Translations under genes and position numbers: made by a program
Assembly: GCF_050320075.1 (NCBI RefSeq)
Contig: NZ_CP190018.1
Strand: one strand, 5' to 3'
DNA: 64,000 bases
DNA from: Escherichia coli
GTDB taxonomy: Bacteria > Pseudomonadota > Gammaproteobacteria > Enterobacterales > Enterobacteriaceae
Shown: one piece after another, positions 1,450 to 17,263 of the stretch
Layout: each line of letters begins with the position of its first letter
Numbering within the stretch: the first letter of the stretch is position 1
The notes under the pieces: model-generated
What the model saw: the letters and a program-made list of their open reading frames with translations, nothing else
What the model was told of the DNA's origin: nothing
The model's database searches: none

Positions 1450-2658
1450 ATGACCGTAAATTCTTCACGTAATGCATTGAAACGCCGAACCTGGGCGCTG
1501 TTTATGTTCTTCTTTTTGCCGGGCCTGTTAATGGCGTCCTGGGCAACCCGTACGCCTGCTATCCGCGATATTCTTTCTGTTTCGATCGCTGAAATGGGCG
1601 GAGTCCTCTTTGGTCTGTCGATCGGTTCAATGAGCGGTATTCTCTGCTCGGCGTGGTTAGTGAAACGCTTTGGGACGCGTAATGTCATCTTGGTCACGAT
1701 GTCCTGCGCATTGATCGGGATGATGATACTAAGTCTGGCACTCTGGCTGACATCGCCCCTGCTCTTCGCGGTTGGTCTCGGCGTCTTTGGGGCAAGTTTT
1801 GGTTCTGCGGAAGTGGCGATAAACGTTGAAGGTGCTGCCGTTGAGCGAGAAATGAATAAGACGGTTTTGCCGATGATGCACGGTTTTTATAGCCTGGGCA
1901 CGCTGGCAGGCGCTGGTGTCGGGATGGCACTAACGGCCTTTGGCGTTCCGGCAACGGTGCACATTTTATTGGCGGCGCTGGTAGGCATCGCGCCTATTTA
2001 TATCGCCATTCAGGCAATCCCTGATGGTACGGGCAAAAATGCTGCCGATGGCACCCAGCATGGTGAAAAAGGCGTACCTTTTTATCGCGATATCCAGTTG
2101 CTACTGATTGGTGTTGTGGTGCTGGCGATGGCCTTTGCCGAAGGTTCTGCCAACGACTGGTTACCCTTATTAATGGTTGACGGTCACGGTTTTAGCCCTA
2201 CTTCCGGCTCGCTGATTTATGCCGGTTTTACCCTGGGGATGACCGTTGGACGCTTCACTGGCGGTTGGTTCATCGACCGTTACAGTCGCGTTGCCGTGGT
2301 TCGGGCCAGTGCACTAATGGGGGCGTTAGGTATTGGGCTGATTATTTTTGTCGATAGCGCCTGGGTCGCTGGGGTGTCTGTTGTACTCTGGGGACTGGGT
2401 GCCTCGCTGGGCTTCCCACTGACCATTTCTGCCGCCAGCGATACCGGCCCCGATGCACCAACCCGCGTCAGTGTGGTAGCAACGACCGGTTATCTGGCTT
2501 TCCTCGTCGGGCCGCCGCTGCTGGGCTATCTCGGCGAACATTATGGATTACGTAGTGCAATGCTGGTTGTACTGGCGCTGGTTATTCTCGCGGCTATTGT
2601 CGCGAAAGCCGTCGCCAAACCCGATACCAAAACGCAGACGGCGATGGAGAATAGTTGA
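1450..2658 (+). CDS. ybjJ: MFS transporter YbjJ
   Basis: 402-aa ORF, multi-TM MFS-like sequence beginning [15 protein letters not shown]. Confidence 0.9.
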
Positions 2659-3473
2659 TGAGCATTAAATTAATTGCGGTAGACATGGATGGTACTTTCT
2701 TAAGCGATCAAAAAACCTATAACCGTGAGCGGTTTATGGCTCAGTATCAGCAAATGAAAGCACAAGGCATTCGCTTTGTGGTCGCCAGCGGGAATCAATA
2801 TTATCAGTTGATCTCTTTCTTCCCTGAAATTGCTAATGAAATTGCCTTTGTGGCTGAAAACGGCGGCTGGGTAGTGAGCGAAGGCAAAGATGTTTTTAAT
2901 GGCGAGCTGTCGAAGGATGCGTTTGCTACTGTCGTGGAACATTTGCTGACGCGCCCGGAAGTGGAAATTATTGCCTGCGGAAAAAATAGCGCCTATACCC
3001 TCAAAAAATATGACGATGCCATGAAAACGGTGGCGGAAATGTATTATCACCGTCTGGAATACGTCGATAACTTTGACAACTTAGAAGATATCTTCTTTAA
3101 GTTTGGTCTGAATCTTTCCGATGAACTGATTCCACAAGTACAAAAAGCATTACATGAGGCCATCGGCGATATTATGGTGCCGGTCCACACCGGCAACGGC
3201 AGCATAGATCTGATTATCCCCGGCGTACATAAAGCCAATGGCCTTCGCCAACTGCAGAAATTATGGGGAATAGACGACAGCGAAGTAGTGGTCTTTGGCG
3301 ATGGCGGTAACGATATTGAGATGCTGCGTCAGGCAGGCTTTAGTTTTGCAATGGAAAATGCCGGCAGCGCGGTCGTCGCAGCGGCAAAATACCGGGCAGG
3401 CTCCAATAACCGTGAAGGCGTACTGGATGTGATCGATAAAGTGCTTAAACACGAAGCGCCATTTAACCAATAA
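2658..3473 (+). CDS. ybjI: HAD-family sugar phosphatase YbjI (Cof-like)
   Basis: ORF 2655..3473; HAD motifs DMDGTF and GDGGND; start overlaps ybjJ stop (ATGATGA). Confidence 0.9.
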   Translation: MSIKLIAVDMDGTFLSDQKTYNRERFMAQYQQMKAQGIRFVVASGNQYYQLISFFPEIANEIAFVAENGGWVVSEGKDVFNGELSKDAFATVVEHLLTRPEVEIIACGKNSAYTLKKYDDAMKTVAEMYYHRLEYVDNFDNLEDIFFKFGLNLSDELIPQVQKALHEAIGDIMVPVHTGNGSIDLIIPGVHKANGLRQLQKLWGIDDSEVVVFGDGGNDIEMLRQAGFSFAMENAGSAVVAAAKYRAGSNNREGVLDVIDKVLKHEAPFNQ

Positions 3474-3557
3474 AACGGCAGCACGCCCGGCAACACAATG
3501 CCTGAATGAAGATTGCATAATTCGCGGAAATTAACCCGCTGCATTATTTCAGGCGAA

Positions 3558-3842
3558 ATGATTATGAAAAATTGTCTACTGTTGGGCGCGCTTTTAATGG
3601 GCTTTACTGGTGTGGCGATGGCGCAAAGTGTCACCGTCGATGTGCCGAGTGGATACAAAGTGGTTGTGGTTCCTGATTCAGTCAGCGTTCCACAAGCGGT
3701 CAGCGTCGCGACTGTGCCGTAAACCGTCTATGTGGCTCCTGCGCCAGCTCCGGCTTACCGCCCGCATCCTTATGTTCGCCATCTTGCCAGCGTAGGTGAA
3801 GGGATGGTTATCGAACACCAGATTGACGACCATCACCATTAA
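3558..3842 (+). pseudogene. ybjH: ybjH interrupted by in-frame TAA (3720-3722) after codon 54; downstream 39 codons remain in frame to TAA at 3840-3842
   Basis: MIMKNCLLLGALLMGFTGVAMA signal-peptide-like N-terminus; reading through the internal stop gives a 94-codon protein ending ...IDDHHH. Confidence 0.6.
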
Positions 3843-3850
3843 TTCGAGAA

Positions 3851-3884
3851 TGCCTGATCGCACAAAGCAATCAGGCATTTTTTT
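3851..3884. terminator. Bidirectional intrinsic terminator between convergent ybjH and mdfA
   Basis: TGCCTGAT...ATCAGGCA 8-bp stem followed by TTTTTTT; T-tract overlaps the mdfA stop. Confidence 0.7.
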
Positions 3885-5115
3885 ACCCTTCGTGCGAATT
3901 TCCCATCTGTTTATCTTTTAAAAAGATAACCATCAGCAACAGCCACAAAATTCCGTTGACAAGGTTGAAGAGATTAAACAGTCCGTTGCCCCCGTTCAGC
4001 CAGGCATGTTTGCTGATTTCAATACCGACGGTAAAGATCAGCATTTGCAGCATCCCCATCGCCGCAGAAACCGTACCTTTACTCATATCGCTGGCAAACA
4101 GAGTTAATCGCACCAGTCCCGCATTCGCCAGACCAATACCGAAAGCATAAATACTTAACCCGGCGGTCATCCATAAATACGCGTGCGATGAGATAACCGT
4201 TGCCGCAGCAGCGACAAACAGACCAATCATAATCGGCCAGCCGCCCATAATAATCAGCGAACGTACGGTGCGGCGCGAGGTCAGACGCGCTAGCAGCAAG
4301 TTACCCGCAATTAACGCCCCGAAAATAGGCACTTGCAGCAAGCCATATTCATAGCTGCTCAACTGCTCACCGGTAATGATGATAATCGGCGACTGGGCGA
4401 TCCACGCCAGCAACGGCAGGCTAACGAATCCCAGCGCCAGCGCCCCCGCCACAAAGCGACCGTTCTTCAGCACCAGCTTATAGTCACGACCGAGTTCTTT
4501 CAGCGACAGTTTCTCGCCTATACGCGTGGCGGTTTCAGGCATGGCTCGTTGCAGACCGAAAAAGGAGATCGCTGCCAATGCGGCAAACAAAACAAACATC
4601 CCCTCCCAGGGCAGCACATGGATCCACGCCGCGCCCACCAGCGGACCAAGTAGTGGAGCAATCAGCGCCACGTTCGCCATTAGCGCGGTGATCTTGATAC
4701 AAACCGCCTCTTCGAAGGATTCCTGAATTGCGGCATATCCCACAGCGCCAATGAAACAGAGGCTTATGCCCTGCAAGAAGCGCAACAGGGTGAATTGTTC
4801 AATGTTTTGCGCCAGTAATATTGCCAGACAGGTGACGATAAACCACACCACTCCCGCCAGCATCACCGGACGGCGGCCAATACGATCCGACAGTGGCCCC
4901 AGGAGCCATTGTAAAAACATCCCGCCCGCCAGATACGCAGTCATCGAAGTAGGAACCCAATCAATGCCCGCCTGATATTGTTCCACCACGGCCAACATAC
5001 CGGGTTGAATCATATCGTTGCCGATATAGGTTGAAAATTCGTAAAGCACCAGACAGAGAGGGAAAAGTAACGCCTGACGTCCAAGCCTGGCACCGGAAGC
5101 TAATTTATTTTGCAT
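3883..5115 (-). CDS. mdfA: Multidrug efflux MFS transporter MdfA
   Basis: ORF 3883..5145; start set at internal ATG (5113-5115) giving 410 aa beginning [14 protein letters not shown]. Confidence 0.9.
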
Positions 5116-16479: not shown

Positions 16480-16487
16480 AAAAATGG
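16480..16487. repeat. IS1 target-site duplication, left copy (AAAAATGG)
   Basis: 8 bp identical to 17256-17263, immediately flanking the IS1 terminal inverted repeats. Confidence 0.7.
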
Positions 16488-16502
16488 GGTAATGACTCCA
16501 AC

Positions 16503-17006
16503 TTATTGATAGTGTTTTATGTTCAGATAATGCCCGATGACTTTGTCATGCAGCTCCACCGATTTTGAGAACGACAGCGACTTCCGTCCCAGCCGTGCCA
16601 GGTGCTGCCTCAGATTCAGGTTATGCCGCTCAATTCGCTGCGTATATCGCTTGCTGATTACGTGCAGCTTTCCCTTCAGGCGGGATTCATACAGCGGCCA
16701 GCCATCCGTCATCCATATCACCACGTCAAAGGGTGACAGCAGGCTCATAAGACGCCCCAGCGTCGCCATAGTGCGTTCACCGAATACGTGCGCAACAACC
16801 GTCTTCCGGAGCCTGTCATACGCGTAAAACAGCCAGCGCTGGCGCGATTTAGCCCCGACGTATCCCCACTGTTCGTCCATTTCCGCGCAGACGATGACGT
16901 CACTGCCCGGCTGTATGCGCGAGGTTACCGACTGCGGCCTGAGTTTTTTAAATGGCGGAAAATCGTGTTGAGGCCAACGCCCATAATGCGGGCAGTTGCC
17001 CGGCAT
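16503..17006 (-). CDS. insB: IS1 transposase InsB (expressed as InsAB' by -1 frameshift)
   Basis: 167-aa ORF, matches recalled IS1 InsB. Confidence 0.9.
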
Positions 17007-17200
17007 CCAACGCCATTCATGGCCATATCAATGATTTTCTGGTGCGTACCGGGTTGAGAAGCGGTGTAAGTGAACTGCAGTTGCCATGTTTTACGGCAGT
17101 GAGAGCAGAGATAGCGCTGATGTCCGGCGGTGCTTTTGCCGTTACGCACCACCCCGTCAGTAGCTGAACAGGAGGGACAGCTGATAGAAACAGAAGCCAC
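16925..17200 (-). CDS. insA: IS1 InsA repressor
   Basis: 91-aa ORF beginning [40 protein letters not shown] (zinc-finger and HTH). Confidence 0.9.
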
Positions 17201-17255
17201 TGGAGCACCTCAAAAACACCATCATACACTAAATCAGTAAGTTGGCAGCATCACC

Positions 17256-17263
17256 AAAAATGG
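17256..17263. repeat. IS1 target-site duplication, right copy (AAAAATGG)
   Basis: Identical to 16480-16487. Confidence 0.7.

Follow-up and report, generated by a model that had tools for sequence, protein, structure and literature searches.

The ybjH locus

The window analysed here is a 64,000-nt stretch of an Escherichia coli genome (contig NZ_CP190018.1, assembly GCF_050320075.1). Near its start, ybjJ, ybjI and ybjH follow one another on the plus strand, with mdfA on the opposite strand and then ybjG beyond them. This is the gene order of K-12. The features of the locus are listed below with the source of each.

1450-2658, plus strand: ybjJ (ORF list)
2658-3473, plus strand: ybjI, the upstream neighbour, intact (ORF list)
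3558-3842, plus strand: complete ybjH frame, 94 codons and a stop, interrupted by an internal stop and so a pseudogene (PGAP places the gene at the matching coordinates, 3558-3842, in the collinear loci L007-L009)
3558-3623, plus strand: probable Sec signal peptide, codons 1-22, MIMKNCLLLGALLMGFTGVAMA, with Ala-X-Ala before Gln23 (read from the sequence)
3558-3719, plus strand: remaining ORF, 54 codons (translation)
3720-3722, plus strand: premature ochre codon TAA, C-to-T at 3720, Gln55 to stop (alignment and 33-mer search)
3723-3839, plus strand: orphaned 39 codons, TVYVAPAPAPAYRPHPYVRHLASVGEGMVIEHQIDDHHH, the part of YbjH with the highest conservation (no difference from K-12 or LI60C3)
3840-3842, plus strand: original ybjH stop, TAA (translation and K-12 length)
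3846-3888, plus strand: intrinsic-terminator hairpin and U-tract between the convergent ybjH and mdfA (RNA fold)
3883-5115, minus strand: mdfA, the convergent downstream neighbour, intact (ORF list)

The ybjH frame opens with an ATG at 3558, and its translation reads MIMKNCLLLGALLMGFTGVAMAQSVTVDVPSGYKVVVVPDSVSVPQAVSVATVP, a stop, TVYVAPAPAPAYRPHPYVRHLASVGEGMVIEHQIDDHHH and a second stop. The internal TAA is codon 55. Past it the frame stays open for 39 codons and reaches the terminal TAA with a total of 94, the annotated length in K-12 (ybjH 285 nt, WP_000605480.1). The original prediction had described just this arrangement, a ybjH frame stopped after codon 54 that continues open to a K-12-like total, and translation bears out every coordinate it gave. 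In random sequence, an open run of 39 codons has a chance of (61/64)^39, or about 0.15 by our own arithmetic. The run is weak evidence on its own, and it is the alignment that decides.

Aligned with K-12, LI60C3 and 2013C-3277, the 285-nt frame shows a sole difference in the coding sequence, T instead of C at 3720. This C3720T change turns CAA (Gln55) into TAA (ochre), and the alignment with K-12 thus returns exactly the single point change, CAA to TAA, that had been proposed. Site 3720 lies outside any homopolymer. The orphaned 117 nt are unchanged from the intact allele in the alignment with K-12 and LI60C3, so there has been no secondary decay. Near-identity to K-12 ybjH extends across the whole frame and gene order is conserved, while an uninterrupted run of 94 codons is absent. 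Judged by sequence and position, the locus is the orthologue of K-12 ybjH in disrupted form.

Direct folding finds the hairpin 3′ of ybjH to be stable (-19.8 kcal/mol, z = -6.65), with a stem at 3846-3882 followed by a run of U. Hairpin and U-tract are common to ybjH and the convergent mdfA, and the two genes have been listed as a convergent overlapping pair (PMC12288877). The consensus promoter/terminator scan missed this hairpin, perhaps because it accepts only loops of 3-8 nt. ybjH closes its run of plus-strand genes and has its own terminator behind it, so no polar effect is expected. Rfam returned no RNA family on either strand between 3300 and 4000.

An antisense ORF of 66 aa (3678-3878, minus strand) runs across the orphaned part of ybjH. 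A gene caller lists it as a gene in two assemblies that carry the TAA allele (L012 and L013, 10115-10315, minus strand). The call is almost certainly a spurious one that the truncation allowed. We recommend that ybjH be annotated in the window as a pseudogene and that neither the 54-codon ORF nor the antisense ORF be called a gene.

Distribution of the TAA allele

A 421-bp query around ybjH matched 5,422 of 5,426 complete E. coli genomes. To separate the alleles, we used a 33-mer centred on site 3720, so that each 28-base megablast word covers the site. The version with C matched 5,410 of the 5,426 genomes and the version with T matched two (0.04%), so reference ybjH genes do not end at the internal stop. 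The two carriers are Ec-U3, from human urine in Burkina Faso, and YZLc1-3, from chicken faeces in China. PGAP flags ybjH in both (ACVUFI_RS15010 and N4725_RS16010) as pseudo, with the note "internal stop". RefSeq annotation already flags the same allele as a pseudogene.

Over an overlap of 23.7 kb, the window has two differences from Ec-U3 and three from YZLc1-3, so that with them it makes three independent assemblies of one clone. We also searched for the exact truncated product from the second ATG (MKN...ATVP, 52 aa) and found it on 155 contigs and in 215 index blocks. Among these, the Logan assemblies ERR12653794 and SRR24223262 are 99.98-99.99% identical to the window. Members of the clone are separated from the window by 1-3 SNPs in 9-24 kb and come from humans and poultry on different continents. 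To judge from these assemblies, the TAA allele is fixed in a clone and is not private to one strain.

The nearest genomes with intact ybjH include 746, MS14384, Ecol_545 and C1. MS14384 is ST963 (PMC10024524), and Ecol_545 has been described as closely matching the clone of a hospital OXA-181 outbreak (bioRxiv 10.1101/850628). We aligned three of the four (746, MS14384 and C1), which have 9-10 SNPs relative to the window in 25 kb. Both complete TAA genomes have seven of these SNPs; those at 695 and 11024 occur in the window only. If the OXA-181 outbreak clone is ST38, as we take it to be, then the local haplotype of the TAA clone looks closest to ST38-complex strains of the ST963 and ST38 type, an assignment drawn from one region.

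The window carries a second lesion, an insertion, 13 kb from ybjH. A 768-bp IS1 at 16488-17255 interrupts pdeI, which encodes a CHASE9/EAL phosphodiesterase, and is flanked by an 8-bp target duplication, AAAAATGG, at 16480-16487 and 17256-17263. The same IS1 is present in Ec-U3 and YZLc1-3 and absent from 746, MS14384 and C1. The clone is thus marked by two disrupted genes, and C3720T together with this IS1 makes a cheap clone marker.

These comparisons also bear on the age of the lesion, which the original prediction had called a probable recent pseudogene in this strain. The pseudogene call agrees with PGAP in two genomes; its restriction to this strain does not hold, given an allele that is clone-wide and also found in other backgrounds (see below). 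"Recent" applies in an evolutionary sense only. The orphaned 117 nt are intact, but the clone already stands seven shared SNPs in 25 kb and an IS1 insertion apart from its nearest intact relatives.

At all nine positions where the window differs from these relatives, it has A or T (seven from G/C to A/T and two from T to A). New mutations that selection has yet to purge usually run in this direction. The two window-only differences, at 695 and 11024, are G:C-to-T:A transversions relative to Ec-U3, YZLc1-3, 746, MS14384 and C1. The first is intergenic, between ybjL and rcdA, and the second replaces CGC (Arg) with CTC (Leu) at codon 91 of rimO. Either true mutations of this isolate or mistakes in its assembly could account for them. 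Elsewhere in the clone, nfsA in the ERR12653794 assembly (L010, 3321-4042) is called as two ORFs of 198 and 60 aa rather than one of 240 aa, and looks like a disrupted nitroreductase gene. Such nfsA disruption is of the kind associated with nitrofurantoin resistance.

The YbjH protein and the constraint on its lost segment

Homologues of YbjH with 62-98% identity occur in E. albertii, E. marmotae, E. fergusonii, Citrobacter, Enterobacter, Lelliottia and Buttiauxella. The Escherichia and Citrobacter homologues are flanked by ybjI and mdfA. Those of Enterobacter cloacae and Lelliottia (L016 and L017) are found away from ybjI and mdfA, next to a TetR-family gene and an M32 peptidase gene, and this different neighbourhood indicates that ybjH has been maintained as an independent unit. 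Column 55 of the alignment holds Gln in all seven of these taxa. The ancestral codon at the stop site is accordingly a sense codon, CAA in the 5,410 complete E. coli genomes and Gln in other genera.

We estimated dN/dS by the Nei-Gojobori method against E. fergusonii, E. marmotae and C. freundii. The whole of ybjH gives 0.06-0.09, which together with the homologues in other genera places the parent gene under selection. The signal-peptide codons give 0.18-0.37, and signal peptides usually show higher dN/dS. Codons 23-54 give 0.03-0.10, and codons 55-94, the segment lost here, give 0.009-0.026. Against E. fergusonii this last segment has 17 synonymous changes and one non-synonymous change. The near-invariant columns of the alignment also cluster in the C-terminus (...Y.PHP..RH.ASV.EGM.IEHQ.DDHH), so it is a constrained part of the protein that the stop removes. 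On this comparative evidence ybjH is a real protein-coding gene under purifying selection. That an uncharacterised gene is shown to be real, with a strongly constrained His-rich C-terminus, is a by-product of the analysis.

The start of the protein may differ from its annotation. Codon 3 (ATG at 3564) is the only invariant Met across genera, codon 1 is not ATG in E. fergusonii (ATT) or C. freundii (CTG), and in Enterobacter and Lelliottia the homologue begins at the position that corresponds to codon 3. The real start may thus be codon 3 and not the annotated ATG at 3558, in which case the truncated product would have 52 aa. The N-terminus runs from MIMK (basic) through NCLLLGALLMGFTGV (hydrophobic) to AMA before Q, a pattern that points to a probable Sec signal peptide and a presumably secreted product. 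An AlphaFold2 model built on a 20-sequence alignment had a mean pLDDT of 49 and a pTM of 0.18, with a helix at residues 3-15 only.

Searches with YbjH gave no Pfam family, with sub-threshold noise only (DUF2583 and ABCA11_C, E about 0.07-0.2), no NCBIfam match, and only chance matches (E above 0.5) in a profile search of the PDB. The name is also attached to a protein of Staphylococcus aureus, presumably as a misspelling of YjbH. The protein in that paper (PMC12518513) is an Spx adaptor and is irrelevant to E. coli ybjH. The only functional hint for ybjH in the literature is that it co-varies with the iron-uptake genes fepC and fhuB under TorR (PMC5294996). From this co-variation and the DDHHH tail, one could speculate that YbjH is a small exported metal-binding protein.

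We consider it very probable that the window carries a genuine C3720T nonsense change and, with it, a likely loss-of-function ybjH pseudogene inherited within an E. coli clone. The C-to-T at 3720 turns the Gln55 codon into an ochre stop and translation would end after 54 codons. The signal peptide and about 32 further residues would remain, and the C-terminal 40 residues, the His-rich and most strongly constrained part, would be lost. The allele is inherited within the clone. With the segment under strongest constraint gone, the likeliest outcome is loss of function, which we rate as likely on comparative grounds.

The strongest competitor, itself unlikely, is a shortened but functional variant, in which the signal peptide and the conserved QSVTVDVPSGYKVVVVP segment are enough for the role of YbjH. 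The retained mature segment is itself well conserved, with the dN/dS of 0.03-0.10 given above, and might keep some activity. Natural YbjH length also varies from 62 to 97 aa, and the allele persists in a widespread clone. However, the segment that is lost is the one with the strongest constraint, and every natural in-frame deletion variant that we examined drops middle residues and keeps the C-terminus. The rarity of the allele among complete genomes likewise argues against a functional short form.

Recurrence of the mutation and other ybjH lesions

Two more contigs carry the same truncated product in other backgrounds. They are 98.6% (L012) and 98.8% (L013) identical to the window. Over a 5-kb stretch, L012 is the same as the O157:H7 strain DEC4E apart from the C-to-T, and L013 is the same as a K-12-like haplotype (RM14721 and MS 196-1), barring the IS insertions of those strains and the C-to-T. 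It follows that the Gln55 stop arose at least three times, in ST38-complex-like, O157:H7-like and K-12-like backgrounds, unless patches shorter than about 250 bp were exchanged. The O157:H7-like and K-12-like backgrounds could instead have received the allele on a short recombination patch. In L012 such a patch would need to be shorter than about 250 bp to fit between the differing sites 3513 and 3760, and recurrent mutation is the simpler account.

Other lesions of ybjH are also found within E. coli. A probable Gln46 stop (P0133) is present on 57 contigs and was not found among the complete E. coli genomes. Frameshifted products (P0012, P0082 and P0097) and in-frame deletions giving 62-72 aa (P0106, P0117, P0077 and P0078) occur as well. 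MS 196-1 (NZ_CP146681.1) has an IS4 immediately upstream of ybjH or in its 5′ end (L019, about 2026-3451), and PGAP calls only an 81-aa 'hypothetical protein' (3473-3718) at ybjH. This is an independent ybjH disruption in a complete genome.

The neighbouring genes show some variation of their own in these backgrounds. RM14721 has an IS1 in the mdfA-ybjG intergenic region (L020, 3676-4373), and four other complete genomes from the same search list an IS1 transposase somewhere in the 5-kb stretch. The mdfA of O157:H7 DEC4E is annotated as a frameshifted pseudogene (L021, 2321-3558), and that of the O157:H7-like L012 (10320-11402) is called at 360 aa rather than 410.

Recurrence raises a further explanation, that YbjH, a conserved and predicted secreted small His-rich protein, is repeatedly inactivated for a reason other than drift, either by adaptive loss in some niches or through a mutational hotspot. 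We think this a little less likely still than a functional short form. It draws on the identical mutation being the sole 5-kb difference in both the O157:H7-like and the K-12-like comparison, and on the other independent disruptions (the probable Gln46 stop, the frameshifts and the IS4 in MS 196-1). A Dcm-methylation hotspot fails, however, since there is no CCWGG at site 3720. Very many public E. coli assemblies exist, and by a rough order-of-magnitude estimate of our own, a few hits per transition site are expected under near-neutrality. Among the 5,426 complete genomes only two have the Gln55 stop and none has the Gln46 stop, and dN/dS over the long term is very low. That one and the same mutation recurs is most simply put down to deep sampling.

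Returning to a drifting loss-of-function allele, its persistence, spread in a clone and recurrence mean that any fitness cost must be small, and we infer that the TAA allele has no phenotype.

Rescue of the C-terminal part is very improbable. It would require re-initiation at the in-frame GTG at 3732, which lies 10 nt past the stop and opens a 36-codon ORF to the original stop, or an ochre suppressor, so that the segment is still made. We saw no Shine-Dalgarno motif upstream of this GTG, a product begun there would have no signal peptide and would therefore stay in the wrong compartment, and UAA terminates translation efficiently.

Least probable of all, and effectively refuted, is a sequencing or assembly error over a true C at 3720 and an intact gene. 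Assembly errors are most often changes of a single base, and the window has two other private differences (695 and 11024), but the same T appears in independent assemblies, namely two complete genomes from other laboratories, hosts and continents and the two Logan assemblies, with 155 contigs in all, at a site without a homopolymer.

The finding itself matters little. This is an ordinary nonsense pseudogene, and the recurrence of an identical mutation is its only mildly unusual aspect. Presumptive natural ybjH knock-out strains do exist, and they could be used in seeking the function of the gene.

Comparison with known ybjH alleles

The closest reference is ybjH of K-12 (b0843; YbjH, WP_000605480.1, UniProt YBJH_ECOLI), which encodes an uncharacterised protein of 94 aa at the same locus, in the same orientation and with the same frame length. 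The two are identical at 284 of 285 nt and 93 of 94 codons specify the same residue. They differ at codon 55, which is TAA in the window and CAA in K-12, and the window consequently translates 54 codons only.

The annotated pseudogenes of Ec-U3 and YZLc1-3 match the window more closely still and share with it the allele, every base of the 421-bp surroundings and the IS1 in pdeI. The other E. coli ybjH variants, like the Gln55 stop, show that length and loss-of-function variation segregates within the species. The in-frame deletion alleles keep the conserved C-terminus, whereas the Gln55 stop loses it, and the remaining disruptions differ from the Gln55 stop in molecular cause.
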